Assembly (NCBI GenBank): GCA_964648865.1 | Contig: CAZYLV010000002.1 | Coordinates: 79,272-143,271 of the forward strand | Source: an uncultured Gammaproteobacteria bacterium | GTDB lineage: Bacteria > Patescibacteriota > Patescibacteriia > 2-12-FULL-57-11 | Reading direction: 5' to 3' | DNA: 64,000 nucleotides | Part shown: one piece after another, positions 9,410 through 53,050 of the stretch | Numbering within the stretch: the first letter of the stretch is position 1 | How the letters are laid out: every line of letters starts with the position of its first letter | Translations under genes and position numbers: made by a program | The notes under the pieces: generated by a model | Seen by the model: the letters and a program-made list of their open reading frames with translations, nothing else | Database searches by the model: none | What the model was told of the DNA's origin: nothing

Positions 9410-9469
9410 ATGGTCCAATACATGCCGATTGGGCCGAACGTACCACAGGAAACCGCCCGCTTCAAGCCT

Positions 9470-10180: not shown

Positions 10181-12414
10181 ACCGCATCGCCCTCCGTGCG
10201 GGGAGCGTCGCCGTCGCGGCCGCGTGCCTGACGGGCCTGATGCGGCTCCCCGCATCCGCCGCCGCCCCGACTGCGGCCTTCGCCGTGCAGTTCTCCGGGC
10301 TCGAAGCGCCGGTCCGCTTGTCGGTGCCGGCCGCCGCCGCCGCGGAGACGCTCGCCGCGCTCCAGGCCGACCCGCGTGTCCGCATCGCCGAGCCGATGGC
10401 CTCCTACCGCGTCTCGGCCTTGGCCGCGAACGACGCGCATTTCGACGAGCAGTGGTATCTGCGCAAGGTCACTGCGCCGGACGCCTGGGACCGTTCGGTG
10501 GGCAGCGCCGACGTGGTCGTCGCCATCCTCGACACCGGCGTCGACGTCAGCCATCCGGACTTGCGTGACAACATCTGGCAGAACCCGCGGGAGATCGAGG
10601 ACGGGCGCGACAACGACGGCAACGGCCTGGTCGACGACCTCCACGGATGGAATTTCTACGACGGCAACGCCGAAGTCGCGCCCGTGTTCGAGTCCTTCAC
10701 CGCCACGGGCATCAACCACGGCACGCTCATCGCCGGGGAGATCGGCGCCATCGGCGGCAACGGGCAAGGCATCGCGGGGGTCAACTGGCGCGTCTCGCTG
10801 ATGCCCATCCGGGTGCTTTCCAGCTCCGGCATCGGCGACATCGTCCATGTGGTCGACGGCATAAACTACGCCATCCGCAACGGCGCCGACGTCATCTCGT
10901 TGAGCTTTTCCGGCCTCAACCGCAGCGCCATCCTCGACGACGCCATCCGCCGCGCAAACGAGGCCGGCATCCTGGTGGTCGCCGCCGCCGGCAACGACGG
11001 CAACGGCAACGGCGGCACGGACCTCGACCGGACGCCGCTCTACCCGGCCTGCTCCGACGGACCCAACGGCGAGAACTGGGTGCTGGGCGTGGCCGCCACC
11101 GACGAGGAGGACCGCAAGGCGCAGTTCTCCGATTTCGGCCGGCGCTGCGTGGACATCTCGGCTCCGGGCGTGCGCATCTTCAGCACGCTGGTGGCGCGCG
11201 CCGACCAGCCCGGCTTCGGCCAAGCGTACGGCGGCTACTACAGCGGCACCTCGCTGGCCGCGCCGCTCGTGGCCGGCGCCGCGGCGCTCCTCAAGTCCTA
11301 CAGCCCGGGGCTGACCCTGCCTGCGCTGCGTGACCTGCTGCTCGCCAGCGCCGACGGCATCGACCCCGCCAACCCCGCCTACGCCGGCAAGCTCGGCCGC
11401 GGCCGGCTCAACATCGCGCGCGCCCTCACCTTGGCGCCGACCTCCATCGCGCCGCAGCCTCCGGGAGCGCCCGTCGCGCCCCCCGCGCCGGCCACCGGGC
11501 AGGGCCTGCAGGCGGTCGTCACGGCGAGCGGTCCGGGCACGGCGTCGAGCGTGGCCTTCCGCGGCATCGACGGCGTGACCTTGGCGTCGTTCGCCCCCTA
11601 CGCCGCCGGTTTCCGGGGCGGCGTCCTGGCCCAGGCGGGCGACGTCGACGGCGACGGCAACTTCGAGATCGTCACCGTCCCGGGCCCCTCCGGCGGCCCG
11701 CACGTGCGCGTCTTCACCTTGGGCGGCACGCTCAAGTCCGAGTTCTTCGCCTACGAGTCCGCCTTCCGCGGCGGCTTGTCGCTGGCGGTGGAGGACGTCG
11801 ACGGCGACGGCATCAGCGACATCGTCGTCAGCCCGCTCGCCGGACGGGCGCCGGAGGTGCGCGTCTTCGATGCGGGCGGGGCGCGCAAGGCCTCCTTCCT
11901 GGCGTACGCCTCGGGTTTCCGCGGCGGGGTGCGCGTCGCCGCGGGCGACGTCGACGGCGACGGCGACGCGGAGATCGTCACCGTGCCGGCCTCGGGCGGC
12001 GGGCCGCATGTGCGCCTCTGGCAGGGCGACGGTGGCGTCTTCTCCGGCTACTTCGCGGAGGATCCCGGCCTGCGCTCCGGCTATCTCGTGGCCATGGGCG
12101 ACGTCAACGGCGACGGCCGCGCCGACATCGGCGTGCTCGATGCGGTCAACGGGTCGCGCATCCGCTTCCGCTCGGCCTACGGCGTGCTGGTGGGGGAGAT
12201 CGAGATCGAAGGCATCGGCAAAGGCTTCACCTACGCGCTCGCCGACGTCAACGGCGACGGCCGCGCGGACCTCATGCTCGGCGTCCAGCCGACGGGCCGC
12301 CTGATCCTCCGGAGCTACGACGTGGTCGGCAAGCTGTTGCGCGAGGCGACCATCGGTGCCGGCACGGCGACGAGCGAAGTGCGCGTGGCGCCGGTCACCG
12401 GCTTCGTGCTCTGA
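10177..12414 (+). CDS. Secreted subtilisin-like (S8) serine protease with C-terminal FG-GAP/VCBS beta-propeller repeats
   Basis: A signal peptide and the Asp, His and Ser catalytic motifs (AILDTGVD, HGTLIAGEI, GTSLAAPLVAGAAAL), followed by at least six GDVDGDG...EIVT repeats. Confidence 0.85.
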   Translation: MNRIALRAGSVAVAAACLTGLMRLPASAAAPTAAFAVQFSGLEAPVRLSVPAAAAAETLAALQADPRVRIAEPMASYRVSALAANDAHFDEQWYLRKVTAPDAWDRSVGSADVVVAILDTGVDVSHPDLRDNIWQNPREIEDGRDNDGNGLVDDLHGWNFYDGNAEVAPVFESFTATGINHGTLIAGEIGAIGGNGQGIAGVNWRVSLMPIRVLSSSGIGDIVHVVDGINYAIRNGADVISLSFSGLNRSAILDDAIRRANEAGILVVAAAGNDGNGNGGTDLDRTPLYPACSDGPNGENWVLGVAATDEEDRKAQFSDFGRRCVDISAPGVRIFSTLVARADQPGFGQAYGGYYSGTSLAAPLVAGAAALLKSYSPGLTLPALRDLLLASADGIDPANPAYAGKLGRGRLNIARALTLAPTSIAPQPPGAPVAPPAPATGQGLQAVVTASGPGTASSVAFRGIDGVTLASFAPYAAGFRGGVLAQAGDVDGDGNFEIVTVPGPSGGPHVRVFTLGGTLKSEFFAYESAFRGGLSLAVEDVDGDGISDIVVSPLAGRAPEVRVFDAGGARKASFLAYASGFRGGVRVAAGDVDGDGDAEIVTVPASGGGPHVRLWQGDGGVFSGYFAEDPGLRSGYLVAMGDVNGDGRADIGVLDAVNGSRIRFRSAYGVLVGEIEIEGIGKGFTYALADVNGDGRADLMLGVQPTGRLILRSYDVVGKLLREATIGAGTATSEVRVAPVTGFVL

Positions 12415-16035: not shown

Positions 16036-16083
16036 GCCGGAGCATTGCCACGGTCACCCTTTTCCCGTAGGGTGCGGCCTGTT

Positions 16084-17247: not shown

Positions 17248-19262
17248 AGATCGCGCTCTTGGGCGGGCTGTACCCGCCGCACGGCGGCGGCGCCGAGCGC
17301 GCCACGGAGCTCCTGGCGCGCGGCTTGGTCGCGCTCGGGCACGAGGTCCATGTGCTGACCACGGCCCGCGAGGCCGTGACGGAGACGCGCGACGGCGTCG
17401 TGGTGCATCGCCTCGCGCCGCGGCATGCCTGGATCGGCGACGTCTTTTCCCGACCGTTCGCGGAACGGGCGCGGTGGAACGTCGCGGAACTGCTCGACCG
17501 TCGCATGACCGCGGCGATCGTGCGTGAGCTCGAGCGGCTCGCGCCCGCGCTGGTCATCACTTCCAACCTGAAGGGGCTCGGCGGAGCGCTGCCGGCCGCG
17601 CTCGGCCGCCTGCCGTGGCCGTACGTCCACGTCGCCCATGATTTCGAGCCCGTCGAACCGATGCTGCTCGGCGTCCATGACCGCGCCGACCGGGTGCGCA
17701 ACCGCGCCTGGGCCGCGCTCTCGCGCCGGCGCTGGGGCGCGCCGGATGCTGTCGTCTACCCGAGCGCCTGGCTGCAGCACTTGCTCGCGACGCATCGCGT
17801 GTTCGCGGGCAGCCGGCAGGCGGTGATCCCCAATGCGGTGGATGTGTCCGGTGTAGGGGCGTATGGCAATACGCCCCTACCGAATGGACCGTTCCGCCTG
17901 CTGTTCATCGGCCAGCTCGAGCCGCACAAAGGGGCGCTCTGGGCGGCCGAGGCGCTGCGTTCCTGGGACGCGCCCTGGACGCTCGACGTCGTCGGCGAGG
18001 GGAGCGAGCGTGCCGCCATCGACGCCAAACGCGACGGCCGCATCCGCACGCACGGGCGGCTCGCCGGCGCCGCGCTCGAGGAGCGGTGGACCCAGGCCGA
18101 CGCGCTCATCGTCCCCTCGCGCTGCCTGGAGAACGCGCCGCTGGTGGTCTTTGAGGCCGCGGCACGGCGCGTCCCCGTGGTGGCCGCGGACGTCGGCGGC
18201 ATCCCGGAGTGGGTGCTGCCCGGAGAGAACGGCTGGCGGTTCGCCGCCGAGGACGGCAAGGCCTTCCGTTTCGCGCTGGCCACGGCCGCGGACCCGACGC
18301 GCCGCGCGGCGTTGCGCTGGCAGCAGCTGCCGCCGTTGCGCACGCCCGAGCAGTACGCACGGGAGATCTTGGCGCTCGCCCCGCAGGCGCCGACCGCACC
18401 GCCCGTGGCGCCGGCCCCCGGCATCCTCGACCTGCTGCCCGCAGACCTGTCCGGTTTCAAGAAAGACGAGGCGCATTACCACGACCACGCCACGCACGAC
18501 GCCGTGCACGTCCATCAGCTCAACGCCTTCCGCAACCGCTTCTATCACGCCCGCATCTTCCGGCATCTGCGTCCGGTGGCGCCGGACGGTTGGGTGCTGG
18601 AGCTCGCAGGCGGCAGCGGCGAGGACGGCGCCGATGCGGTGCGGCGCGGGCTGAAGGTGATCGAGACGGACATCTCCAAAGGCGCGGTCGAGGATGCGGT
18701 ACGGACGCTCTCCGCCGTGCCGGGCAGCGACGGCCGCTTCATCGCCGCGACCATGGACGCCGAGCGCATCCCGTTCCCGGAGGGGAGCGTCGCCGGCGCC
18801 TGGATGACGGCGAGCTTCCACCACGCCGAGGATCCCGCGGCCGTGCTGCGCGAGGTCCGTCGCGTGCTCGCGCCCGGCGCGCGGTTCGCCGCGGCCATCG
18901 AGCCGCATCGCCTGTACTTCGGGACGATCAACTTCTTCAAGCCCGCGCTCGACGCGTTGCTCGGCAGGCGTGCCGAGAAGTCCGTGGCCGACGAGGAGCA
19001 CAGCGGCTTCTGGCGCGGCGAACTGCGTGCGCATTTCGAGAAAGCCGGCTTCACCGACATCCGCGTCGAGCCGATGTGGTTCACGGCCGGCATCCTGCAT
19101 TACAAGCTCGAATTCCTCTCGCGCCTCTTCAAGACGGAACAGCGGCTGCGCGTGCCGTTGTGGATCGAGAAAGCGTGCGTGTACTTCGACGAGTTCGTCT
19201 TCCGTCTGCCGGGCGGCGTGTATCTCGCCTGGCACTGGACGGCGTCGGGCAGGAAACCCTAG
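17244..19262 (+). CDS. Bifunctional GT4 glycosyltransferase fused to a C-terminal class I SAM-dependent methyltransferase
   Basis: The GT4 half contains FEAAARRVPVVAADVGGIPE. The methyltransferase half contains VLELAGGSGEDG (motif I) and VLAPGARF (post-I). Confidence 0.75.
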   Translation: MKIALLGGLYPPHGGGAERATELLARGLVALGHEVHVLTTAREAVTETRDGVVVHRLAPRHAWIGDVFSRPFAERARWNVAELLDRRMTAAIVRELERLAPALVITSNLKGLGGALPAALGRLPWPYVHVAHDFEPVEPMLLGVHDRADRVRNRAWAALSRRRWGAPDAVVYPSAWLQHLLATHRVFAGSRQAVIPNAVDVSGVGAYGNTPLPNGPFRLLFIGQLEPHKGALWAAEALRSWDAPWTLDVVGEGSERAAIDAKRDGRIRTHGRLAGAALEERWTQADALIVPSRCLENAPLVVFEAAARRVPVVAADVGGIPEWVLPGENGWRFAAEDGKAFRFALATAADPTRRAALRWQQLPPLRTPEQYAREILALAPQAPTAPPVAPAPGILDLLPADLSGFKKDEAHYHDHATHDAVHVHQLNAFRNRFYHARIFRHLRPVAPDGWVLELAGGSGEDGADAVRRGLKVIETDISKGAVEDAVRTLSAVPGSDGRFIAATMDAERIPFPEGSVAGAWMTASFHHAEDPAAVLREVRRVLAPGARFAAAIEPHRLYFGTINFFKPALDALLGRRAEKSVADEEHSGFWRGELRAHFEKAGFTDIRVEPMWFTAGILHYKLEFLSRLFKTEQRLRVPLWIEKACVYFDEFVFRLPGGVYLAWHWTASGRKP

Positions 19263-26682: not shown

Positions 26683-26753
26683 GGGGCTGGACACGCCGCG
26701 GAATGTCGCGTAGGTTCCTCCGCGAGTCCAGCTCAGCTGGGCGAGGAGGAACC

Positions 26754-27458: not shown

Positions 27459-27516
27459 CGGGGCGGCCCTTTTCTTTTTCCGGCGGATGCCGTAGGTTGC
27501 CGCGCAGGAGGGACCA

Positions 27517-28206
27517 TTGAAACCGTTGAAGTTCATCCTGTCGGACGTCGGCGGCGTGCTGATGCACGTCGATCGGTACGGCCGCGAGCATGCGCTGTCC
27601 CGGCAGTACGGGCTCGACCCGCGCGCGTTGCGCGAGCTGCTCTACGACGAGCGCCTCTTCCACGCCTTGGAGCGTGGGACGCTGGGCTGGGAGGTCTACC
27701 GCGAGACCCGGCTGGCGCACCTGCGCGCGATGGGCGCGGCGCTCGAGGAGGACGCCGAGGGACGCTTCGATGCCACGTGGGTGAGCATCCTGCGCGAGCC
27801 GGTGATGCCGGTGGCGCGCATGTGGCTCGCCCTGCGCAATCGGCTGGAGATCGTCTCGGTCTCCAACGTCGACCCGGTGAGCTACGAGTACGGCGTCCGC
27901 CACCACGCCATGGTCGCCGGGTGCTTCTCGCGGGACGACACGCACTCCTTCCGCTTCGGGCGGAGGAAGGGCGACGACGACTACTTCCCGGCGCTGCTCG
28001 AACGGCTCGACGCGCACCCGGAGGAGTGCCTGTTCGTGGACGACCTGCGGGAGCACGTGGTCGCCGCCAAACGCTACGGCATGGACGTCGTCTGGATGCG
28101 CGAGATCAGCGAGGGCTCGCTGCTCGAGCTCCGGCTGCGGCTCATCGAGCGCGGCGTGGACGCCGAGGCCCTGCCGGAGGGCTGGGCGCCCGGCCCGCGC
28201 TGCTAG
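27517..28206 (+). CDS. HAD-like hydrolase, paralog B (motif I: DVGGV)
   Basis: ILSDVGGVL and FVDD. TTG start with an AGGAGG RBS. Collinear similarity to paralog A (VSNVDPVSYEYGV vs VSASNVDVVSYERGV, FRFGRRKGDDDYF vs FVIGRRKGDPDYF). Confidence 0.55.
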   Translation: MKPLKFILSDVGGVLMHVDRYGREHALSRQYGLDPRALRELLYDERLFHALERGTLGWEVYRETRLAHLRAMGAALEEDAEGRFDATWVSILREPVMPVARMWLALRNRLEIVSVSNVDPVSYEYGVRHHAMVAGCFSRDDTHSFRFGRRKGDDDYFPALLERLDAHPEECLFVDDLREHVVAAKRYGMDVVWMREISEGSLLELRLRLIERGVDAEALPEGWAPGPRC

Positions 28207-30185: not shown

Positions 30186-30253
30186 GGTTTGACAAGCGGT
30201 GTTTTTTTGTGCATGCTCGCGTCGCTGACGCGGTCAGCAGGAGGTGAGGGACA

Positions 30254-32634: not shown

Positions 32635-32662
32635 GTAGGGGCGTAATGCATTACGCCCCTAC
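32635..32662. repeat. Perfect 28-bp palindrome GTAGGGGCGTAATGCATTACGCCCCTAC (copy 1 of a recurring motif). It ends 5 nt upstream of the murA -35 element and 12 nt upstream of the divergent PEGA gene start.
   Basis: The reverse complement is identical to the forward sequence. The candidate murA promoter is TTGCAT (32667-32672), a 17-nt spacer, and TACATT (32690-32695). Confidence 0.8.
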
Positions 32663-38350: not shown

Positions 38351-38611
38351 ATGACGCGCGACCAGCTGCGAGGGATGATCCAGAAGCTCGACCTCGGCAA
38401 GGCGGACGAGGAGTTGGCCGGGGAGATCCTGGCCGAGACGCCGGACGAGGAGCTTGATACGTTGGCGGCCATCGTCGGCGACCGCGAGGCGCTGCGCACG
38501 CTCATCCGCAACTACCGCGAAGAGGCGGCCGGGGAGAAGGAGGAGGACGTCTTCGAGGGCGCGCCGGACCTGATCGGCCATGCCGTCGCAGAAGACGAAA
38601 AACAGGAGTAG
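38351..38611 (+). CDS. Small acidic hypothetical protein, translationally coupled to nrdJ
   Basis: Its ATG overlaps the nrdJ stop (TGATATG). 86 aa, rich in Glu and Asp. Confidence 0.4.
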   Translation: MTRDQLRGMIQKLDLGKADEELAGEILAETPDEELDTLAAIVGDREALRTLIRNYREEAAGEKEEDVFEGAPDLIGHAVAEDEKQE

Positions 38612-38631
38612 GGGCGTGATGCGTCACGCCC
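38611..38631. repeat. Copy 2 of the recurring palindrome (GGGGCGTGATGCGTCACGCCC). It lies exactly between the AGGAG RBS (38604-38608) and the ATG (38633) of the corrinoid adenosyltransferase gene.
   Basis: A 20-bp near-perfect palindrome with one central G.T pair. The arms are identical to those of copy 3. Confidence 0.8.
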
Positions 38632-38632
38632 T

Positions 38633-39211
38633 ATGAAGAATCGGCCCCCCGAGGAGTGGGGGAAGCTCCAGGTCTTCACCGGTACCGGCAAAGGCAAGAC
38701 CACGGCGGCGCTCGGCACGGCTCTGCGCGCGTTCGCCGTCGGCAAGCGCGTGGCCGTCGTCTGGTTCGACAAGGGCGGCACGCACTACAGCGAACGCGGG
38801 TTCCTGGGGTGGCTGCGGGAGCAGGAGACCCCGTGGGGCGGCAGCATCACCGTCGCCGCGTCCGGGCTCGACCGCATCGACCCGGAGACGGGGCGCTTCC
38901 GCTTCGGCGTCACGGATGAGGACAAGGCCGAGGCGGCCCGCGGCTGGGCCATCGCAGAGGGCCTCATCCGCGACGGACAGCACGATCTGGTCGTCCTGGA
39001 CGAGATCAACACCACCGTGGCCTTGGGCATGCTCCCCGAGGCACCGGTGCTCGCGGCCCTTGACGCACGCCCCGCGCACGTGGAGATAATCTGCACCGGA
39101 CGCGATGCGCCGCCGGGCATCCGCGAGCGGGCCGATCTCCTCACCGAGATGACGCTCGTCAAGCACTACTTCTACCACGGCGCCGCCGCCCGCGAGGGCT
39201 TGGATTACTAG
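38633..39211 (+). CDS. cobO: Cob(I)alamin / corrinoid adenosyltransferase (cobO/cobA/btuR family; family symbol only)
   Basis: P-loop FTGTGKGKTTAALG and VLDEI, ~190 aa, typical of ATP:cob(I)alamin adenosyltransferases. Confidence 0.8.
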   Translation: MKNRPPEEWGKLQVFTGTGKGKTTAALGTALRAFAVGKRVAVVWFDKGGTHYSERGFLGWLREQETPWGGSITVAASGLDRIDPETGRFRFGVTDEDKAEAARGWAIAEGLIRDGQHDLVVLDEINTTVALGMLPEAPVLAALDARPAHVEIICTGRDAPPGIRERADLLTEMTLVKHYFYHGAAAREGLDY

Positions 39212-39213
39212 TC

Positions 39214-39233
39214 GGGCGTGATGCATCACGCCC
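39214..39233. repeat. Copy 3 of the recurring palindrome (GGGCGTGATGCATCACGCCC, a perfect 20-mer), 11 nt upstream of the DUF4430 gene start
   Basis: The reverse complement is identical to the forward sequence. The flanking bases C/T...CCTAC resemble the arms of copy 1. Confidence 0.8.
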
Positions 39234-39244
39234 CTACAGCCGGT

Positions 39245-45611: not shown

Positions 45612-45684
<73 letters not shown>

Positions 45685-45711
45685 CAGAGCAACGGATTTT
45701 CGCGTCCTCTC

Positions 45712-46401
45712 ATGGAACCGCACGGCATCCGCCACCTCGGCATCATCCTGGACGGCAACCGCACCTGGGCCCGCGGTCGTGGCCTGCCGACGTTGGAGGG
45801 CCACCGCCGCGGCTACGATAGGCTCAAGGAGTTCGGGGACTGGTGCATCGCCCGCGGCATTCCCATGGTCACGGCGTTCGCCTTCTCCACGGAGAATTGG
45901 AACCGTGCGCCGGAGGAGGTCGCGTACCTGATGGAGCTGCTCGAGCGCGCGCTCAGCCGCGAGGTCGACGAGTTCGACAAGCGTGGCGTGCGGCTGCGGG
46001 TCATCGGGCGGCGCGAGGGGCTGCCCACGGCAATCGTCCGGGCCGCCGCGGCCGCCGAGGAGCGCACCAAGAACAACGGCAAGATGACCCTGCAGCTGGC
46101 CATCAACTACGGCGGCCGTCCGGAGATCGTCGATGCCGCCAAGCGCGCCCTGGCGGCGGGCCTCACGCCGGAGACGCTCACCGAGGAGGCCTTCACCCGT
46201 TTCCTGTACGCGCCGGAGACCCCCGATCCCGACCTCATCATCCGTACCGCCGGCCACCGGCGGCTCTCCGGATTCCTGCTCTGGGAGGCCGCCTACAGCG
46301 AGCTGCATTTCACCAAGACGCTCTGGCCGGACTTCTCGGAGGTCGACCTCGACGCCGCTCTGGCCGACTACGCCGGCCGTGTACGCAAGTTCGGGAAGTG
46401 A
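45712..46401 (+). CDS. uppS: Undecaprenyl-diphosphate synthase (cis-isoprenyl transferase)
   Basis: HLGIILDGNRTWA and FAFSTENWNR, the UPP synthase signatures. Confidence 0.9.
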   Translation: MEPHGIRHLGIILDGNRTWARGRGLPTLEGHRRGYDRLKEFGDWCIARGIPMVTAFAFSTENWNRAPEEVAYLMELLERALSREVDEFDKRGVRLRVIGRREGLPTAIVRAAAAAEERTKNNGKMTLQLAINYGGRPEIVDAAKRALAAGLTPETLTEEAFTRFLYAPETPDPDLIIRTAGHRRLSGFLLWEAAYSELHFTKTLWPDFSEVDLDAALADYAGRVRKFGK

Positions 46402-46410
46402 GCTATACTG

Positions 46411-46421
46411 GGCGTGATGCC
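46411..46421. repeat. Half-site GGCGTGATGCC, identical to the left arm of palindrome copies 2 and 3. It is preceded by TATACT, upstream of the antiporter gene.
   Basis: An 11-mer shared with the 38612 and 39215 arms. The right arm does not complete a palindrome here. Confidence 0.4.
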
Positions 46422-46458
46422 CAGGAGGAAAGGGGGGAAGACATCGTTCTGGAAGGAC

Positions 46459-47811
46459 ATGATGCGGACGATCGTGCGTCCGCTGCTTCCGTATGGCGGC
46501 CTGCTCATCGGCGTGGCGGCCGTCTCCGTGGTGACCCGCGAGGTGCCGGCCTTCCGGGGCTGGTTCGGTGGCGGCGAGGCCGGCATCCCGCTGGTCGTCG
46601 CCGTCATCTTCCTGCTCGGCTACTGGACCAACCGCCTTGCCCCCAAGACGACCATCCCGTCGTTCGTCTGGGCGATCTTCTTCGGCATGGCGCTGGAGCC
46701 GGCGCTCTCCACGCTCACCGGCGACCTCTCGGCCATCCGCGTGGTCATCGAGCTGTTGGCCGCCTTGGTGCTGTTCGGCGGCGGGGTCGAGGTGCCCTTC
46801 GCCAGCTTCAAGAAGTGGTTCGCGCCGATCGCGCTCCTGGCCATCCTGGGGGTGCTCTTCACGGCCTTCGGCTTCTCCTCGGCGCTCTCGCTCGTCGCTC
46901 CGGCGCTCGGTTTCGAGGTGCCGGTGGTCGCCGCCGTGCTGCTCGGCGCCATCCTCTCGTCGACCGACCCGACGGCCATCATCCCGTCGCTCAAGAAGCT
47001 GCGCTTCGTGCGTCCGTTCCTCAAGGACATCGCCGTCAGCGAGAGCGCGGTCAACGACGTCAGCGGCACCATCCTGACGCGCTTCCTGCTCGTGGGCGTG
47101 GCGGCGCTCGGCGCGGCCGGCGCCGGATCGGTCGCGGAGTGGTACGCGCCGCTGCTGCGCAAGGCCACGCTTGAGGCCTTCGCGCTGCAGGCGCTCTACG
47201 GCACGCTGGTCGGTCTCGTCGGGGCCTGGATGCTGCGGCGCTGGGCGGAGCGCGCCGCCAAGGAAGAGCATGCCAAGAGCGACCCGGCGCTGTTCCTCTC
47301 GGTGCCCATCCTGATGTACGCGGCGGGCAGCATCGTCGGCGGTTCCGGGTTCCTGGCGGCCTTCGTCGCTGGCCTGCTGTTCGACGCCCAGAGTCCGACG
47401 CGCGAGGTGCGCCACTTCTTTGAGCGGACCGTCGACGGCTTCGTGAAGCCGGTCATCTTCATCCTGCTCGGCGCGTTGGTGCCGCTGCCGGCCCTGCTCG
47501 CCGTGCTGCCCTTGGGCGTCGTCGCGGCCGCCGTCTTCATGTTCGTCATCCGACCGCTGGTCATCTTCCTGACGCTGCTGCCCTGGACCTGGGGCCGCGG
47601 CGCGTTCCATCTCCAGGACCTGCTGTTCCTGTCTTTCGTCCGTGAGACCGGCGTCATCCCGGCGGTGCTGCTGGTCATCACCGCCTCAACCGGGCTCGTG
47701 GGCAGCGGGCTGGTCCTGGCCGTCGGCATGTGGGTCATCCTGCTGACGCTCGTCATCGAACCGCCGCTCACGCCGTGGGTGGCCAAGAGACTGGGCGTCG
47801 CACGCCCCTAG
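46459..47811 (+). CDS. Monovalent cation:proton antiporter (CPA1/NhaP-type Na+/H+ exchanger)
   Basis: ~12 TM helices. Motifs SSTDPTAIIPSL and SAVNDVSG match the conserved TDP and ND motifs of Na+/H+ exchangers. Alternative start at 46414. Confidence 0.65.
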   Translation: MMRTIVRPLLPYGGLLIGVAAVSVVTREVPAFRGWFGGGEAGIPLVVAVIFLLGYWTNRLAPKTTIPSFVWAIFFGMALEPALSTLTGDLSAIRVVIELLAALVLFGGGVEVPFASFKKWFAPIALLAILGVLFTAFGFSSALSLVAPALGFEVPVVAAVLLGAILSSTDPTAIIPSLKKLRFVRPFLKDIAVSESAVNDVSGTILTRFLLVGVAALGAAGAGSVAEWYAPLLRKATLEAFALQALYGTLVGLVGAWMLRRWAERAAKEEHAKSDPALFLSVPILMYAAGSIVGGSGFLAAFVAGLLFDAQSPTREVRHFFERTVDGFVKPVIFILLGALVPLPALLAVLPLGVVAAAVFMFVIRPLVIFLTLLPWTWGRGAFHLQDLLFLSFVRETGVIPAVLLVITASTGLVGSGLVLAVGMWVILLTLVIEPPLTPWVAKRLGVARP

Positions 47812-47821
47812 CCGCATCGCC

Positions 47822-48217
47822 ATGGCGTACTTCACGCATCTGCTCGACCAGACCCTCGGCAACGAGCGCTTCCGCACGGTGCTGCACACCGGGCGACGCA
47901 GCCAGCTGGTGCTGATGGCCATCCCGCCGGGAGGGGACATCGGCGAGGAGACGCACCCGCACGTCGAGCAGACCCTCTTCTTCATCTCCGGTTCGGCCGA
48001 GGCCGTGCTCGACGGCGAGGTCCGCAAGGTCATGGCCGGGGACGTGGTCGTCGTCTCGCCGGGCGTCCGTCACAACGTCCGTAACGTCGGCGCCATCCCG
48101 CTCAAGCTGTATACTGTCTATGTGCCGCCGAACCACATCGACGGCCGCGTCCATCGCACCAAGGCCGACGCCGAGGCCGATACGGAAGACGAAGCTTTCG
48201 GCGAGGCGGTGCGCTGA
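47822..48217 (+). CDS. Cupin-domain protein
   Basis: G-x5-HxH...E-x6-G...P-x-G-x2-H-x3-N pattern (EETHPHVEQTLFFISG...SPGVRHNVRN). Confidence 0.7.
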   Translation: MAYFTHLLDQTLGNERFRTVLHTGRRSQLVLMAIPPGGDIGEETHPHVEQTLFFISGSAEAVLDGEVRKVMAGDVVVVSPGVRHNVRNVGAIPLKLYTVYVPPNHIDGRVHRTKADAEADTEDEAFGEAVR

Positions 48218-48247
48218 TCCCCTCCGTTCACTCCTCATTGGACGACT

Positions 48248-49150
48248 ATGCATGACGTCATGCGCAAGGCCACGGGCGTGGCCACATCGCTGATCGTCAC
48301 CTTGTCGCTGGTGCATCCCACGCTGGCGCAGGAGGTGACCCTCTCGCTCACGGAAGAGGAAGCGGCCGAGGAACAGGTCGTGGCTGCGCCGACGGACGCA
48401 CCGCTCGTGCGCTTCGCCAAGCTCGACCGTTCCTGGGTGGTCTACCGCGAGTCCGACTCGCAGCAGATCTGGGCCATCGGCGCCGACGGCACCACCAAGC
48501 ACGAGATCCAGACGCTCGCCTTCTTCTCCGCCTTCGACGCCAACTACCTGGTGAAGCTGCTCAAGCCCGGCCGGCTCGACGGCCTGACCGTCGGCGCGCC
48601 CATCACCTCCGCGGACGGGCTCGACGAGGACGCCTACCGCAAGCGTCCCTTCCAGTGCCGGCTCGTGAAGGTCGCCGACCGCCCGGCCGTCTACGTGGTC
48701 TGCTTCGGCAAGCGCCGCGCCGTCGTCCATGAGGACGTCTTCCACCGCTTCGGCTGGGAGTTCCGCGACGTCGAGACCGTCCCGCAGGCCGAGCTCGACG
48801 GCTACACGGACGAGGGCGTCGTCACCGACGACACGGTCTTCGAGGAGGGCGTGGAGATCGAGGGTACCGAGGACCGGCAGCTGCGCGAACGCCTTACGAC
48901 GCGCCTCGACCTGCGCGGCAAGCGCGTCGTGCGCCAGCGGGTGGTGCGCGTCATCGGCCGGCCGGACCTCTACGTCATCACGCGCGACGGCCTGCGTCGC
49001 CGCATCCGCGACGTGGCCGCGCTGCGCCGTCTCGCCATCGACGTCGGCGAGGTCTCCGAGGTGACCGCCGACGAGCTGGCGGCCTTCCCGGAAGGCGAGC
49101 CGCTGACCGCCGAAAGCGACGACGACTTCCTGGAAGAGGAGGTCGAGTAG
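48248..49150 (+). CDS. Secreted hypothetical protein, acidic at both termini
   Basis: A signal peptide (SLIVTLSLVHPTLAQE) and no recognisable domain. Confidence 0.5.
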   Translation: MHDVMRKATGVATSLIVTLSLVHPTLAQEVTLSLTEEEAAEEQVVAAPTDAPLVRFAKLDRSWVVYRESDSQQIWAIGADGTTKHEIQTLAFFSAFDANYLVKLLKPGRLDGLTVGAPITSADGLDEDAYRKRPFQCRLVKVADRPAVYVVCFGKRRAVVHEDVFHRFGWEFRDVETVPQAELDGYTDEGVVTDDTVFEEGVEIEGTEDRQLRERLTTRLDLRGKRVVRQRVVRVIGRPDLYVITRDGLRRRIRDVAALRRLAIDVGEVSEVTADELAAFPEGEPLTAESDDDFLEEEVE

Positions 49151-49164
49151 GCATCGGACGCATG

Positions 49165-49200
49165 GCCCCCGGTCCGCACGGACCGGGGGCTTCCGTCTTT
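49165..49200 (+). terminator. Intrinsic terminator
   Basis: An 11-bp GC stem (GCCCCCGGTCC-GCAC-GGACCGGGGGC) followed by TTCCGTCTTT. Confidence 0.6.
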
Positions 49201-49240
49201 CCAGGACGGCGCGGATGCGCTAGGGTCGGCTCGGAGGTGA
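49189..49240 (+). promoter_or_regulatory. Promoter and leader, copy 1: TTTCCA-17nt-TAGGGT, then the RBS GGAGGTG, driving the Nudix gene
   Basis: A 52-nt segment, 51/52 identical to 49852-49903. It contains two small hairpins (CCGTC-TTTCCAG-GACGG and GCGC-GGAT-GCGC). Confidence 0.6.
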
Positions 49241-49243
49241 GGG

Positions 49244-49756
49244 ATGATTGAGGACGACACCGACGACGCGAACGTCTACAGGGACGCGCGGGGTGAGCGG
49301 CACATCAAGCCGGACGCCGAGCCCATCCACCCGCGGCCCTCGGGGTACGCCTGGATCATGGACCACGAGACGGGAGAGGTCCTGGTCGTGAAGCAGGTCT
49401 GGGGAAGGGTCTGGAGCCTTCCCGGCGGAGGCATCGACGAGGATGAGGTCGATCTCGACGGTGCCGTGCGCGAGTGCAGGGAGGAGACGGGGTACGATGT
49501 CCGTCTCGACGGCACGTGCGTCATCGCGATGCGGAACAACTTCTACGACGACGTGACCCCCGGGCGTGCGCCGCGCTACTGTGACGCGGTCGTCACCGTG
49601 TTCCGGGGGCGGATCGTCGGGGAGCGGCGTCCCGTCGAGGAGGTCCCCCCGTACGCGGTGGAGGAGGTCATCGAGATCGCTTGGAAGCGACCGGACGACT
49701 TGCGAGCGGATGGATGCGATCGCATCTTGCGGGCGGTTCTCGAGCGGATGCGCTGA
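49244..49756 (+). CDS. Nudix hydrolase
   Basis: Nudix box GGGIDEDEVDLDGAVRECREETGY. Confidence 0.8.
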   Translation: MIEDDTDDANVYRDARGERHIKPDAEPIHPRPSGYAWIMDHETGEVLVVKQVWGRVWSLPGGGIDEDEVDLDGAVRECREETGYDVRLDGTCVIAMRNNFYDDVTPGRAPRYCDAVVTVFRGRIVGERRPVEEVPPYAVEEVIEIAWKRPDDLRADGCDRILRAVLERMR

Positions 49757-49851
49757 GCATCGCGTCCCGTACGGTGACATGACAAGGCCTTCACGGACGT
49801 GTCGACCGCGGGCGTCGCAGAGCGGCGCCTTCTTTCTTTCTTGTGAGCGGC

Positions 49852-49903
49852 GCTTCCGTCTTTCCAGGACGGCGCGGATGCGCTAGGGTCGGCCCGGAGG
49901 TGT
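49852..49903 (+). promoter_or_regulatory. Promoter and leader, copy 2 (duplicate of 49189-49240), driving the NlpC/P60 gene
   Basis: The same -35, spacer, -10 and RBS, with a single T/C difference. Confidence 0.6.
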
Positions 49904-49904
49904 G

Positions 49905-50549
49905 ATGGAACAACCGGAACCGTTCCGTACGGTCCAGGGCCGGTGCGCCGTGGTGCTCGGGGAGCTGGCGCCGCGCGTCTCGATGGCCGCGGTCGCCGCG
50001 GCGCTCGCGGAGCATGGCTGCAGGATCCTGGAAGGGGAAGAGGCGACCGATCCCGTCGCCGAGGCGCGTGCGCTCCTGGGGCGGGCGACCTACCGGCGCG
50101 GCGCCAGGATGCGCGAGGCGCCCGAGACGGTGGACTGCTCATCGCTCGTCAAGTGGAGCTTCGGGCGCTGCGGCATCTCCTTGCCGCGCTTGAGCGTCCA
50201 GCAACGCCGCTGCGGCCGCCCGGTGCCGCCGGCCGCGCTCCGCGCCGGCGACCTGCTGTTCACGACCGGAGGGCGCAACTGGTACGAGCACGACCCCGCG
50301 GACGGCGTGGGCCACGTGTACCTCGCCACCGGCGCGGGCACGCTCCTGCACGCCGACCGCCGCGACAGGACGGTGGTCGAGGAACCGCTCGAGGAGGTCT
50401 TCGGGCGCTGCCCGGAGCGGCAGCTGCGTGGGTGCCGGCGCATCCTGCCGGACCGTCCCTGGCGCACGCTGGAGATCCCGGCCGAGCTGGAGATCGAGAG
50501 CGCCGACCATCTGCGCTGGAAGGTCCTGGCCTGGACCTGGCGAGGCTGA
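49905..50549 (+). CDS. NlpC/P60-family cysteine peptidase or amidase without a signal peptide (cytoplasmic)
   Basis: The catalytic-Cys region DCSSLVKW and the His region GHVYLATG. The N-terminus is not hydrophobic. Confidence 0.7.
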   Translation: MEQPEPFRTVQGRCAVVLGELAPRVSMAAVAAALAEHGCRILEGEEATDPVAEARALLGRATYRRGARMREAPETVDCSSLVKWSFGRCGISLPRLSVQQRRCGRPVPPAALRAGDLLFTTGGRNWYEHDPADGVGHVYLATGAGTLLHADRRDRTVVEEPLEEVFGRCPERQLRGCRRILPDRPWRTLEIPAELEIESADHLRWKVLAWTWRG

Positions 50550-50600
50550 GCCATGCTCGGCCTTTTTTCTTTTCCCGCGGCGACGTACCCTCAGAGGGCT

Positions 50601-51821
50601 ATGGCCGACCTCTTCGACCACAAATTGCGGAAGGAAACGGCCAGGACCGCGCCGCTGGCCGACCGCATGCGGCCGCAGTCGCTCGACGAGTTCGTCGGCC
50701 AGGAGCAGCTGGTCGGCGAGGGCGCCCCCATCCGTACGCTCATCGAGGCCGACGAGACGCCGTCGTTGCTGCTGTGGGGTCCGCCCGGATCGGGCAAGAC
50801 CACCCTGGCGCGCATCGTCGCCAAGATGACGCGCTCGACCTTCGTGCCGCTCTCGGCCGTGTCCTCGGGCATCGCCGACCTCAAGAAGGTCGTGGCCGAG
50901 GCCCAGGAGCGGCGCAAGCTCTTCGGGCTGCGGACCATCGTCTTCGTGGACGAGATCCACCGCTGGAACAAGGCCCAACAGGACGCGCTCCTGCCGCATG
51001 TCGAGGACGGCACGGTCACCCTCATCGGCGCGACCACCGAGAATCCCAGTTTCTCCGTGAACGCCGCCTTGCTCTCGCGTTGCCGTGTCTTCCTGCTGGA
51101 GATGCTGCGCACGGAGGACATCACGCGGCTGCTGCGGCGCGCCGTGGCCGACGCCGAGCGTGGCATCGGCGGTTGGGGCGTGGGCTTCACGGACGAGGCG
51201 CTCGCGTACCTGGCCGCCATCGCCAGCGGCGACGCCCGCAATGCCTTGTCGATGCTGGAGATCGCCGCATCCGCGGCCCGCAAGAAGCGGGGAGCGGGCG
51301 TGGTAGAATTGGACAAGGCCGCGGTCTCGGCTGCCGTGCAGAAGCGCCACCTCCTCTACGACAAGACCGGAGAGGAGCACTACAACATCATCTCCGCGCT
51401 GCATAAGACGATGCGCGCCTCGGACGCGGACGCCGCGCTCTACTGGCTCGGGCGGATGCTCGAGGCGGGGGAGGACCCGCTCTACGTGGCGCGTCGGCTG
51501 ATCCGCTTCGCCTCCGAGGACATCGGGCTGGCCGATCCGCAGGCGCTGGTCCAGGCCGTCGCGGCCTACGAGGCGAGCCGCAACATCGGCATGCCGGAGT
51601 GCACCGTGGTGCTCGCGCAATGCGTGGCGTACCTGGCCCGCGCGCCCAAGAGCCGCGCCGTGGACAGCGCCTACGCCGCCGTGAAGCGCGACATCGCCGA
51701 GCAGCCCAACGACCCGGTGCCGCTCCACCTGCGGAACGTCGAGCCCATCGGCCTGCAGGGCGAGAAGGAACGGCAATCGAACCTGCCCGAGAGGCTGAAG
51801 CACAGGAAATACCTGCAATGA
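50601..51821 (+). CDS. rarA: Replication-associated recombination protein A (AAA+ ATPase)
   Basis: Walker A LLLWGPPGSGKTTLA, Walker B IVFVDEIHRWNK, and the C-terminal MgsA helical and tetramerisation domain. Confidence 0.85.
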   Translation: MADLFDHKLRKETARTAPLADRMRPQSLDEFVGQEQLVGEGAPIRTLIEADETPSLLLWGPPGSGKTTLARIVAKMTRSTFVPLSAVSSGIADLKKVVAEAQERRKLFGLRTIVFVDEIHRWNKAQQDALLPHVEDGTVTLIGATTENPSFSVNAALLSRCRVFLLEMLRTEDITRLLRRAVADAERGIGGWGVGFTDEALAYLAAIASGDARNALSMLEIAASAARKKRGAGVVELDKAAVSAAVQKRHLLYDKTGEEHYNIISALHKTMRASDADAALYWLGRMLEAGEDPLYVARRLIRFASEDIGLADPQALVQAVAAYEASRNIGMPECTVVLAQCVAYLARAPKSRAVDSAYAAVKRDIAEQPNDPVPLHLRNVEPIGLQGEKERQSNLPERLKHRKYLQ

Positions 51822-53050
51822 AGAAGATCGTCGTCACCATTTCCGCGCTGGCCGCGACCGGCGCGCTCGCCGCCATCCTGCTGGCGCTGGGAATCACCAG
51901 CCCGGAGTTCGTGCTGGCGCGGGCGGCCAAGCGCGCGGCCGCGCTCCGGAGCGTGCGCGTGGAGGGCACGGTGACCGGCATCTACTCCACGTACTTCGAT
52001 GCCAGCTACCGTACGCACATCACGCCGCACCCGGAGACGGACGCCGAGGTCCTGGCGTTCATGGATCCCGGCGCCCGCTTGACGTTCCGGATGGACGCGG
52101 CCGGGGATCTCCTCACTCCGGATGTCGACGCTGAGGCCGTGAGCGGCGGACCCAAGCACGGGCCGATGCGCCTGCGTCTGCGGCGGGTGCTGCTCAAGAG
52201 CTTCGTCCGGTACGACGATGTGCCGACCGCGGATCGGCGCGGCCAGCCCGGCTATGTCGGCCAGTGGTTCTCCGTCGAACCGTTCCTGCTCGTCTCCTGG
52301 TTCAGCGGCAACGAGCCGCGCGTCTACATCCCGGCGCAGGATGAGGCGATCCGCACGGCATTCGGCCGGAATCGCATCTTCCAGCCCGACGGCCCCATGG
52401 CCACGCGTACCGTCGCTGGGCGGGAGGCCTGGGTCGTGCCGGTGCGCATCTCCGCCGAGGGGGTCGCGGCATTCCGGACGGCGGTCGCCGACGTTGCGGC
52501 GCAGGGCGACCCCGGTGCCGGCGACCTGGTCGGTGAGGTCCGTCATTTTCCGCGACTCGAGGATGCCGCCTGGCACGGGACGCTGACGGTGGACAAGCGC
52601 AGCTTCGACCTGCTCGCCGTGGCCCTGACCAATGTCCCGACGGACGCCTCACCCGGGCCGCAGGCCGCGACCCTGGCCTTGGCGTTCTCCAAGCACGATG
52701 AGCCGGTCGAGATCCTCATGCCGGAGAACGCCCGGCCCGTCGGCGCCCTCGACCCGCTCACACCACCCGCATTGGCTTCCGCCGGAACCGCGACGTCGAC
52801 GCCATCTGGTTCGGGTGCGGAAACCGCGCCCCTCCAGCCCGCAGCGGCGACCACCTCGACCCCGCAGACAGACGACACCGACGGCGACGGGCTGACCGAC
52901 GTGCTCGAGAATTTCTACGGCTCGGACCCGCGCAACCCGGACACCGACGGCGACGGCCGCGGCGACGGTGCCGAGGTCGAGGCCGGGGACGACCCGGCCG
53001 GCCCAGGCAAGCTCTTCCAGTTCGGTGCCGGAGCCACATCGACCCGCTAG
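51818..53050 (+). CDS. Membrane-anchored secreted protein with C-terminal thrombospondin-type-3-like calcium-binding repeats
   Basis: An N-terminal TM helix and the C-terminal TDDTDGDGLTDVLENFYGSDPRNPDTDGDGRGDG (DxDxDG repeats). Confidence 0.55.
   Translation: MKKIVVTISALAATGALAAILLALGITSPEFVLARAAKRAAALRSVRVEGTVTGIYSTYFDASYRTHITPHPETDAEVLAFMDPGARLTFRMDAAGDLLTPDVDAEAVSGGPKHGPMRLRLRRVLLKSFVRYDDVPTADRRGQPGYVGQWFSVEPFLLVSWFSGNEPRVYIPAQDEAIRTAFGRNRIFQPDGPMATRTVAGREAWVVPVRISAEGVAAFRTAVADVAAQGDPGAGDLVGEVRHFPRLEDAAWHGTLTVDKRSFDLLAVALTNVPTDASPGPQAATLALAFSKHDEPVEILMPENARPVGALDPLTPPALASAGTATSTPSGSGAETAPLQPAAATTSTPQTDDTDGDGLTDVLENFYGSDPRNPDTDGDGRGDGAEVEAGDDPAGPGKLFQFGAGATSTR

Follow-up and report, generated by a model that had tools for sequence, protein, structure and literature searches.

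A near-identical 54-nt promoter-like region precedes adjacent, unrelated Nudix hydrolase and NlpC/P60 peptidase genes in an uncultured Patescibacteria genome

Upstream regions of at least 50 nt that are at least 80% identical and precede unrelated genes have been described as putative mobile promoters (PMPs), comprising more than 4000 families; most of the families are pairs, they occur without a known mobile element and their mechanism is unknown (Matus-Garcia, Nijveen & van Passel 2012; PMC3575422). The region screened for them, from -150 to -50 relative to the start codon, was a screening convention and not a biological criterion (PMC3575422). The same work cites the rnk-citT event of the E. 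coli long-term experiment, a promoter capture by local duplication, and also Correia elements, ERIC and REPIN/REP sequences as short repeated intergenic DNA able to supply promoter elements (PMC3575422).

In this work we have analyzed a short repeat in a 64-kb stretch of DNA (the window) from an uncultured high-GC Patescibacteria (CPR) genome. The repeat fits the known PMP phenomenon, being identical at 52 of 54 positions in front of non-homologous genes, above the limits of 80% identity and 50 nt. It differs in location, since copy 1 spans about -58 to -5 and copy 2 about -56 to -3 relative to the translation start, outside the interval screened for PMPs and including the -10 and Shine-Dalgarno (SD) sequences; moreover, the distance between the copies is just 663 nt, the genes behind them are neighbours, and the host is a CPR bacterium. 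In captures of the rnk-citT type, kilobases of DNA with coding sequence among them are duplicated, and a gene becomes joined to a foreign promoter. The present case resembles them in that the promoter of a neighbour would have been acquired through local copying, but here a 54-nt regulatory region alone was duplicated and the coding sequences were untouched. Unlike Correia, ERIC and REP sequences the repeat has neither terminal inverted repeats nor a palindromic core, and two copies only were found in the window and the public collections scanned. With this copy number, no terminal inverted repeats and no flanking homology it does not qualify as a MITE, REP or IS remnant, and it lacks the marks of an integron cassette or att site, as no integrase is encoded among the neighbours and the repeat is not palindromic. 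A separate REP-like palindrome family of different sequence exists in the window.

A repeat search of the 64-kb window aligned positions 49186-49239 with 49849-49902 over 54 nt (96%, 52/54), the longest exact run being 42 nt (49189-49230 and 49852-49893). The elements of the locus, and a related site elsewhere in the window, are as follows.

49164..49191, + strand: hairpin T1, after a gene for an unknown 300-aa protein (stop 49150); MFE fold and sequence
49186..49239, + strand: repeat copy 1 (R1); repeat search, core-mer matches and sequence
49244..49756, + strand: Nudix hydrolase gene, 170 aa; Pfam PF00293, E 5.7e-16
49810..49843, + strand: terminator-like hairpin T2 (49810-49830) with the T-tract TCTTTCTTTCTTG, 3' of the Nudix gene; terminator scan, T-tract motif at 49829-49840
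49831..49852, + strand: likely remnant of the upstream half of an older promoter (T-tract and GTGAGCGGCG); alignment with relative L082
49849..49902, + strand: repeat copy 2 (R2), with the elements of copy 1; repeat search, sequence and Logan contigs
49905..50549, + strand: NlpC/P60 (C40) peptidase gene, 214 aa; Pfam PF00877, E 8.7e-14
50542..50603, + strand: putative RarA promoter, with hairpin T3, CTTTTTTCTTTT (50562-50573), 12 nt, TACCCT (50586-50591), 9 nt and ATG 50601
27467..27519, + strand: diverged third site S3 upstream of a HAD hydrolase gene, with a T-tract, GCGGATGCCG, TAGGTT, AGGAGG and a TTG start; shares GCGGATGCNNTAGGNT with the repeat

The neighbourhood encodes UppS, a Na/H exchanger, a cupin, an unknown protein, the Nudix hydrolase, the NlpC/P60 peptidase and RarA; neither mobile-element genes (integrase, transposase or other) nor a regulator gene were found near the repeat. 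The initial annotation had called the two genes behind the repeat a Nudix hydrolase and a cytoplasmic NlpC/P60 protein, which Pfam confirms at the superfamily level, and no obvious N-terminal signal sequence was seen in the latter. The two proteins are unrelated and not paralogous (best BLASTP E 0.04 over 24 aa). The duplicated segment of 52 nt reported in front of these genes was found in its place as part of the 54-nt alignment; its identity, given as 51/52, had to be corrected to 50/52 over 49189-49240 and 49852-49903, with mismatches at 49231 and 49240. Homology is limited on the left by the terminator stem and on the right ends 2-5 nt before each start codon, and none was detected in the flanks at the DNA level. 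A longer element or IS remnant reaching into the coding sequences was rejected, as there is no flanking homology and no mobile-element gene nearby, so that the reading as a duplicated regulatory region stands.

A 40-mer and a 29-mer from the repeat core each match exactly these two sites (0.00 expected, 100 shuffles), and the window holds two copies only even when 16 mismatches in 40 are tolerated over its 64 kb. Among the 26 intergenic regions of the window the pair R1/R2 is the sole significant similarity (E 4e-23). The search for other copies that the initial annotation had proposed returned none beyond these two, either in the window or in exact and degenerate scans of public collections with two patterns (genome_contigs and viral_contigs scanned once each, metagenome_contigs twice), and a 12-mer screen of 90 fetched loci gave only scattered G+C-rich chance matches.

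Since the source is a metagenome-assembled genome, an assembly artefact or a chance similarity had to be considered. The repeat is real and was reproduced by independent assemblies from other sequencing runs. Logan contig L001 covers 49218-50274 without mismatches and L005 covers 49628-50604 with 3 mismatches, L002-L004 begin at 49864-49866, and four contigs from other runs (L073-L076) all end at 49218, where the last 31-mer specific to copy 1 is found, just as a k=31 graph should behave when it meets a genuine repeat of 42 nt. Assemblies of different runs thus either include copy 2 together with the sequence on its two sides or are interrupted precisely at the borders of the repeat. The copies also carry their own variants. 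Two positions of R2 depart from R1: 49851, a C that is replaced by G in strain L005, and 49894, a C where R1 has T (49231). The duplication is present in two strains of the same species. As, in addition, 0 of 100 shuffles gave even one match, an artefact or chance origin is extremely improbable.

All the elements described in the initial annotation were found in both copies: the -35-like TTTCCA (49198-49203 and 49861-49866), a 17-nt spacer, the -10-like TAGGGT (49221-49226 and 49884-49889) and, 6 nt further, the SD sequence GGAGGTG (49233-49239 and 49896-49902; GGAGG at 49233-49237 and 49896-49900). The T-rich tract CTTCCGTCTTTCC lies ahead of TTTCCA in copy 1. The core 12-mer GGAGGTGAGGGA of the ribosome binding site also precedes the WG-repeat gene as had been noted, at 30240-30251 and not at 30238-30249; its part GGAGGTGA we take to be an extended SD sequence, judging from the 16S 3' end. 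The best reading of the 54-nt unit is a compact putative promoter and SD module, since the sister genomes share the layout of terminator T-tract, TANNNT -10 and very short leader. In such a module the T-rich tract would have two roles, as tail of the hairpin before it and as -35 region (TTTCCA), and a 6-nt G+C-rich discriminator would separate the TANNNT-type -10 (TAGGGT) from the extended SD (GGAGGTG). At each gene the unit takes up nearly the whole gap between terminator-like hairpin and start codon.

Each copy is situated 3' of a hairpin; if these hairpins terminate transcription, any promoter must fall within the repeat. T1 has a stem of 11-12 bp (GGCCCCCGGTCC / GGACCGGGGGCT), the last 5-6 nt of which are the first nucleotides of copy 1. 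The T-rich beginning of the repeat forms the weak U-tail of T1. T1 was not called in the terminator scan because of too few T in the tail, and with so poor a U-tail read-through from the upstream gene is possible, in which case the repeat would be transcribed as RNA too. The T-tract motif occurs 8 times in the window against 0.16 expected, in 7 of the 8 cases on the + strand near gene ends.

A consensus scan of the E. coli type called no promoter at TTTCCA-N17-TAGGGT in this CPR host, and the boxes match the canonical ones at 4/6 (TTTCCA) and 3/6 (TAGGGT) positions. The arrangement fits the TANNNT pattern conserved at orthologous promoters of the family. Upstream of RarA, CTTTTTTCTTTT-N12/13-TAC(C/T)CT-N6-9-ATG is conserved at 8 loci regardless of the gene that precedes it, and this region (50542-50603 in the window) looks like a conserved, nearly leaderless promoter that exemplifies the layout of the lineage. 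Orthologues of the NlpC/P60 gene in L006 and L084 are preceded by TAGGCT, then 6-9 nt and GGAGG, and the HAD orthologues by TAGGTT, TAGCGT or TAGATT, 7-9 nt and SD; only the inner bases of the hexamer vary, the TA at its start and the T at its end being constant. Further TAGGNT sites of the window with good -35 boxes at 17-18 nt are found at 16045 (TTGCCA) and 26711 (TGGACA). Promoters with a TANNNT -10 and short or absent leaders are known from high-GC Gram-positives. The -10 sequences seen here resemble that actinobacterial type: the initial TA and the closing T are constant, the bases between them differ from site to site, and a G stands just before the box. RarA of the family resembles it too, looking nearly leaderless with 9 nt between -10 and ATG. 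The assignment of TANNNT promoters to this CPR lineage is made by analogy; in a 2025 compilation in NAR the only CPR member with mapped starts is Nanosynbacter lyticus (PMC12641261). The predicted transcription starts fall near 49233 and 49896. Initiation some 7 nt past the -10 would place the SD at the extreme 5' end of the mRNA; the resulting leader, of roughly 10 nt, would be unusually short, and this counts against the promoter reading.

The interval between UppS and RarA differs in every relative examined, giving six related arrangements: tRNA-Pro-Nudix-NlpC-RarA in L006, UppS-cupin-Nudix-RarA in L082/L083, UppS-(cupin remnant)-NlpC-RarA in L084, where a remnant of the cupin 3' end is kept, and UppS-cupin-RarA in L086/L087. 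It is a hot spot in which Nudix and NlpC/P60 units come and go. The N-terminus of the Nudix protein aligns with those of L006, L082 and L083 at 42% identity, the L006 and L082 proteins being 57-60% identical to each other, and the NlpC/P60 N-terminus MEQP is kept in L006 and L084. The organism of L077 is close, its DNA being 84% identical to 22.6-35.4 kb of the window, and distant NlpC/P60 orthologues from 37 Patescibacteria loci lack Nudix or RarA neighbours and are uninformative on the promoter. Neither the 54-nt module nor a duplicated promoter was found in the relatives by the 12-mer scan, nor in L006 by the repeat search, and the orthologous units of L006, L082/L083 and L084 carry other sequence in its place; the copy is thus recent and lineage-specific. 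The recent duplication or capture of a promoter, one of the two origins put forward in the initial annotation, is supported by this absence, by the restriction of the repeat to the 5' regulatory region and by the lack of relatedness of the proteins.

We consider it probable that the whole is explained by such a compact module and its recent local copying in the lineage of this species. One copy would have arisen from the other in a short event confined to that lineage, likely by gene conversion or template switch, the Nudix and NlpC/P60 genes each forming a putative, separately terminated single-gene unit of the gain/loss hot spot between UppS and RarA. The copied tract would run from the G-rich end of a stem (GGGGC) on the left to the SD on the right, and both of these probably pre-existed at the two sites. 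GGGGC and GGAGGTG may be the microhomologies used by the event, and as evidence on direction these boundaries are ambiguous. Two weak clues incline us slightly towards copy 1 as the source of copy 2. The likely remnant at 49831-49852 aligns with TTTTTCTTTTCTAGAGGCGGCG of L082, which continues to a -10 TACTCT where the window continues to copy 2.

Other explanations concern either the origin of the repeat or its function. Direct repeats might be the footprint of recombination, left by insertion of the Nudix unit upstream of NlpC or serving as a substrate for its exact excision, with no regulatory significance of their own. The variability of the UppS-RarA interval in all the relatives speaks for this, as do the 27-nt direct repeats of T-tract and spacer that flank the NlpC unit in L006, the Nudix-RarA junction of L082, which looks as though the NlpC unit had been lost precisely between repeats of this kind, the cupin remnant of L084, and the distance of the window Nudix protein (just 42%) from its L006 and L082 counterparts. 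The adjacency of Nudix and NlpC is shared with L006, however, and is older than the near-identical repeat, which also weakens the view of Nudix as a freshly inserted cassette; no integrase or transposase is found nearby, and the repeat coincides exactly with the stretch from promoter to SD, on which both genes depend for expression whatever its origin. We regard a mere footprint as unlikely. It deals mostly with how the repeat arose and does not conflict with the main explanation. A broader possibility, quite unlikely in our estimation, is that the common unit plan (hairpin, CTTTTTTCTTTT tract, TANNNT -10 and short leader) is itself a recombination substrate through which units between UppS and RarA are gained, lost and re-wired, the 54-nt duplication being its fresh, transposase-free product, and that Nudix, NlpC/P60 and HAD, which share GCGGATGC-NN-TAGGNT, perhaps form one expression class.

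As to function, the initial annotation had suggested co-regulation by a factor recognising hairpins or dyads in the spacer. The two small hairpins, CCGTC/GACGG and GCGC/GCGC, are indeed present, but the best dyad of the repeat has 5 bp and the share of controls with an equal or better one is 26% for mononucleotide shuffles and 40% for 54-mers drawn at random from the window, so the hairpins are no stronger than chance. A transcription factor acting on CCGTC-N7-GACGG and GCGC-GGAT-GCGC might co-regulate Nudix and NlpC/P60, and possibly also the HAD hydrolase at 27517, given that near-identical sequence (52/54) precedes two genes and that GCGGATGCNNTAGGNT recurs in S3 (3 matches against 0 expected, for a pattern picked post hoc); the arms flanking GGAT in S3 and the repeat differ in a complementary way (CGGC/GCCG and GCGC/GCGC), and GGAT stands 4-5 nt before the -10 in the NlpC gene of L006 and the HAD orthologue of L077. 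Yet the S3 dyad is lost in this closest orthologue (AAGG-GGAT-GCCG), neither the NlpC gene of L084 nor the HAD gene of L081 is preceded by GGAT, no conserved dyad was found at the orthologous sites of L006, L084 and L077, and no regulator gene is located nearby. A recent copy alone gives 96% identity over 54 nt without selection on a binding site, and the shared promoter and ribosome binding site imply similar expression with no need of a special factor. With the RNA results below also negative, the proposed co-regulation finds no support and a shared operator is decidedly unlikely. The repeat might instead act as a cis-regulatory RNA leader, such as a thermometer or a small riboswitch-like switch in which a 5' CUUCC pairs with the GGAGG of the SD; GCUUCCG and CGGAGGU form a helix in the MFE fold of copy 1, and read-through transcripts past the weak U-tail of T1 could carry the repeat. 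Such pairing is always shown by a pyrimidine tract ahead of a purine-rich SD, though, folding is no better than in shuffles (z = +0.86 for copy 1, -0.46 for copy 2), and the sequence is not conserved in relatives. Rfam has no family on the repeat body, at the gathering threshold or at E up to 10, its matches being the terminator hairpin beside copy 1 and, weakly, 49780-49845, the terminator hairpin of the Nudix gene just 5' of copy 2. The RNA-leader explanation is accordingly very improbable.

The probable reading thus remains a compact module copied locally and recently. The duplication between these neighbours is real, a probable and ordinary case of promoter reuse that constitutes no new regulatory system; current understanding is not overturned, and one well-delimited case is added to known promoter reuse. 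The comparison of sister genomes yields a working model of the promoter layout in the lineage, with a terminator T-tract, a TANNNT -10 and a very short or absent leader, and reveals a small hot spot of gene turnover beside RarA. Having near-identical signals for the initiation of transcription and translation, the Nudix and NlpC/P60 genes should be expressed alike if the module is active. If it is an active promoter, the locus would represent a clean, datable regulatory rewiring by copying of 54 nt only, in a streamlined CPR genome, a setting in which promoters are almost unstudied.

Upstream of the Nudix and NlpC/P60 genes, a repeat search of the window revealed a 54-nt direct repeat with 96% identity and a spacing of 663 nt:

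49186-49239, copy 1, before the Nudix gene
49849-49902, copy 2, before the NlpC/P60 gene

The longest exact run is 42 nt (49189 to 49230 in copy 1), and over the exact coordinates of the 52-nt promoter module described in the initial annotation the identity is 50 of 52 positions, not 51. The core 40-mer and 29-mer each occur in the window twice, in copies 1 and 2 only (expectation 0.00, 100 dinucleotide-preserving shuffles). No diverged third copy was found in the 64-kb window with up to 16 mismatches tolerated per 40, and the pair was the sole significant match (E 4e-23) when 26 intergenic regions were compared all-against-all. When the 100 nt to either side were aligned with gaps, no homology extended past the 54 nt; the longer element with homology reaching into the coding sequences, considered initially as a possible artefact, is thus not seen. 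Scans of genome_contigs, metagenome_contigs and viral_contigs gave no match to TTTCCAGGACGG-N7-GCGCTAGGGT, and metagenome_contigs held none to the 22-mer GGCGCGGATGCGCTAGGGTCGG.

The repeat region is genuine and no assembly artefact, since Logan assemblies made independently from other sequencing runs contain it too. One Logan contig (L001) spans 49218-50274 with 0 mismatches to the window, and another (L005) spans 49628-50604 with three, one of which, a G at 49851, brings copy 2 closer to copy 1. Contigs L002-L004 start at 49864-49866, and the four that contain the upstream gene (L073-L076) all stop at 49218, the last 31-mer found in copy 1 alone. A genuine 42-nt repeat is expected to break a k=31 graph in this way.

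Both copies contain the elements recognized initially (TTTCCA, 17 nt, TAGGGT and GGAGGTG), with 6 nt between TAGGGT and GGAGGTG. They are accompanied by the following structures:

49164-49191, hairpin with an 11-12 bp stem, 3' of the stop codon of a 300-aa gene, before copy 1
49810-49830, terminator-like hairpin followed by a T-tract and 9 nt, then copy 2
50542-50573, hairpin and T-tract 3' of the NlpC/P60 gene

The 300-aa protein encoded upstream of Nudix has no family match. Copy 1 starts within the 3' arm of the first hairpin and stops 4 nt short of the Nudix ATG (49244); for copy 2 the gap to the NlpC/P60 ATG (49905) is 2 nt. Because hairpins bracket the Nudix and NlpC/P60 genes, each looks like a separate single-gene transcription unit, and if the hairpins terminate transcription the promoters of both must sit inside the repeat.

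An E. coli-type consensus scan detected no promoter at the repeat, so the case for one depends on comparison within the lineage. The region upstream of RarA keeps the layout CTTTTTTCTTTT, 12-13 nt, TAC(C/T)CT, 6-9 nt and ATG at eight related loci, regardless of which gene precedes RarA. A hairpin stands before CTTTTTTCTTTT in these loci, among them:

Window, 50542-50603
L006 (GCA_041643055.1), 10640-10697
L082, 5950-6003
L084, 5945-6003
L086, 1300-1354
L087, 2285-2336
L088, 722-764

The RarA transcript would have next to no leader. An ORF called from the first possible start of RarA, 50553, is 422 aa long and overlaps the terminator; more likely, translation begins at the conserved ATGGCCGA (50601; 406 aa). 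The NlpC/P60 orthologues of L006 and L084 have TAGGCT with GGAGG 6-9 nt on, and HAD-family hydrolase orthologues have TAGGTT, TAGCGT or TAGATT 7-9 nt upstream of the Shine-Dalgarno sequence (SD), the T, A and last T of the -10 being retained and the inner bases varying. Elsewhere in the window TAGGNT stands 17-18 nt after good -35 boxes (TTGCCA at 16045, TGGACA at 26711). With up to 2 mismatches, CTTTTTTCTTTT occurs 8 times in the window against 0.16 expected (2220, 27467, 28218, 31303, 49829, 50562, 57941 and 59764; seven on the + strand, near gene ends), and appears to be this genome's standard terminator tail plus -35 region. From the orthologous RarA, NlpC and HAD upstream patterns and these counts, the repeat is predicted to share the family's usual layout of terminator T-tract, TANNNT -10 and very short leader, and transcription would start near 49233 and 49896. 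Nanosynbacter lyticus is the only CPR bacterium with mapped starts in a published compilation (PMC12641261).

Co-regulation by a factor recognizing hairpins or dyads in the spacer, as proposed in the initial annotation, finds nothing positive in its favour: the two small dyads, read as an operator, are equalled or bettered by 26% of shuffled 54-mers and by 40% of those drawn at random from the window. A structured RNA leader likewise gains no positive support, the folding z of the copies being +0.86 and -0.46 and Rfam giving no match to the repeat with E up to 10 allowed; the MFE fold pairs CUUCC with GGAGG, as expected of any pyrimidine tail preceding an SD. The 12-mer GGAGGTGAGGGA, whose position is corrected to 30240-30251, contributes no evidence for a shared module, since GGAGGTGA, a complement of the 16S rRNA 3' tail, makes it an extended SD. 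The promoter-like stretch before the HAD hydrolase gene (27467-27519) has GCGGATGCNNTAGGNT in common with the repeat (3 matches, 0 expected, for a pattern picked post hoc), and the dyad arms flanking GGAT show a complementary change, CGGC/GCCG against GCGC/GCGC. Since this dyad is missing from the nearest orthologue (L077, 75% identical) and GGAT is missing in L084 and L081, the site is kept as a weak lead to one shared promoter class and not as evidence of a regulon.

RarA proteins are 80-83% identical, and the gene content between UppS (or tRNA-Pro) and RarA differs from one arrangement to the next (window 45686-50600, L006 and L082-L087; six arrangements):

Window: tRNA-Pro-UppS-Na/H exchanger-cupin-unknown-Nudix-NlpC/P60-RarA
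L006: tRNA-Pro-Nudix-NlpC/P60-RarA
L082, L083: UppS-cupin-Nudix-RarA
L084: UppS-(about 45-nt cupin 3'-end remnant)-NlpC/P60-RarA
L086, L087: UppS-cupin-RarA

Each unit is bracketed by a hairpin and T-tract, and the interval is a small hot spot in which single-gene units are gained and lost. The NlpC unit of L006 lies between 27-nt direct repeats (T-tract plus spacer), and the Nudix-RarA junction of L082 looks like a precise loss between T-tract-plus-spacer repeats. In L084 the cupin remnant (ATCGACGGCCGCGTCCATGTCACCAAGGCCGATGC..., within 5185-5250, between UppS and NlpC/P60) matches window 48135-48176 and points to a deletion there. The tRNA-Pro(CGG) of L006 (9209-9282) has a 5' fragment of itself ahead of it (9160-9186) and, behind it, a second copy of its 3' half (9393-9457, 82% over 65 nt), putative att-like scars immediately 5' of the Nudix gene; this tRNA-Pro stands in the window at 45612-45685, 3.5 kb 5' of Nudix.

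A 12-mer screen, with a repeat search of L006 in addition, found neither the 54-mer nor a duplicated promoter in any compared relative (L006, L082-L084, L086, L087), and the duplication is shared by two strains of the window's own species; the copying was therefore recent and confined to this lineage. This agrees with the recent promoter duplication envisaged initially, as does the unrelatedness of the downstream Nudix and NlpC/P60 proteins. As to its direction, the first 5-6 nt of copy 1 complete the stem of the upstream gene's hairpin and the same nucleotides are unpaired in copy 2; immediately to the left, at 49831-49852, remains of an older T-tract and spacer align with the L082 sequence preceding its -10, so that copy 2 seems to have been pasted in at the -10 position. 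On these two clues copy 1 may have been the source. Against it, GGGGC and GGAGGTG may be no more than microhomologies where a template switch or conversion set in and broke off, and NlpC orthologues have TAGGCT as far from the SD as copy 2 has its -10. On balance we lean slightly towards the direction from copy 1 to copy 2.

The G+C content of the window is 69% (range 64-73%), which is unusually high for Patescibacteria; despite this, synteny and the naming of the closest proteins and loci in the databases place the genome firmly within Patescibacteria/CPR. A palindromic element of 26-28 nt, TAGGGGCGT-N8-ACGCCCCTA, occurs four times (17854-17879, 32636-32661, 38609-38634 and 39211-39236; 0.02 expected) and forms a family of REP-like elements or terminator hairpins with no relation to the 54-nt repeat. 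Within a 745-aa ORF a 153-nt coding unit is repeated in tandem three to five times (11583-12287); the repeats are rich in GACGTCGACGGCGACGGC, Asp-Gly-rich and calcium-binding-like, and a related stretch lies at 52940-52983.

The 54-nt repeat is none of MITE/REP, att site, integron cassette or known RNA. Putative mobile promoters, as outlined in PMC3575422, are upstream similarities of at least 50 nt before unrelated genes, comprising more than 4000 families, mostly pairs, with about 92% identity and an unknown mechanism. The repeat resembles them in placing similar upstream regions ahead of unrelated genes, but it lies nearer the start codon than their screen window, takes in the -10 and SD, and serves two adjacent genes. 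It is a real and recent duplication, confined to this lineage, of a predicted compact promoter-plus-RBS region, and it fits as an additional case of the known phenomenon of putative mobile promoters.
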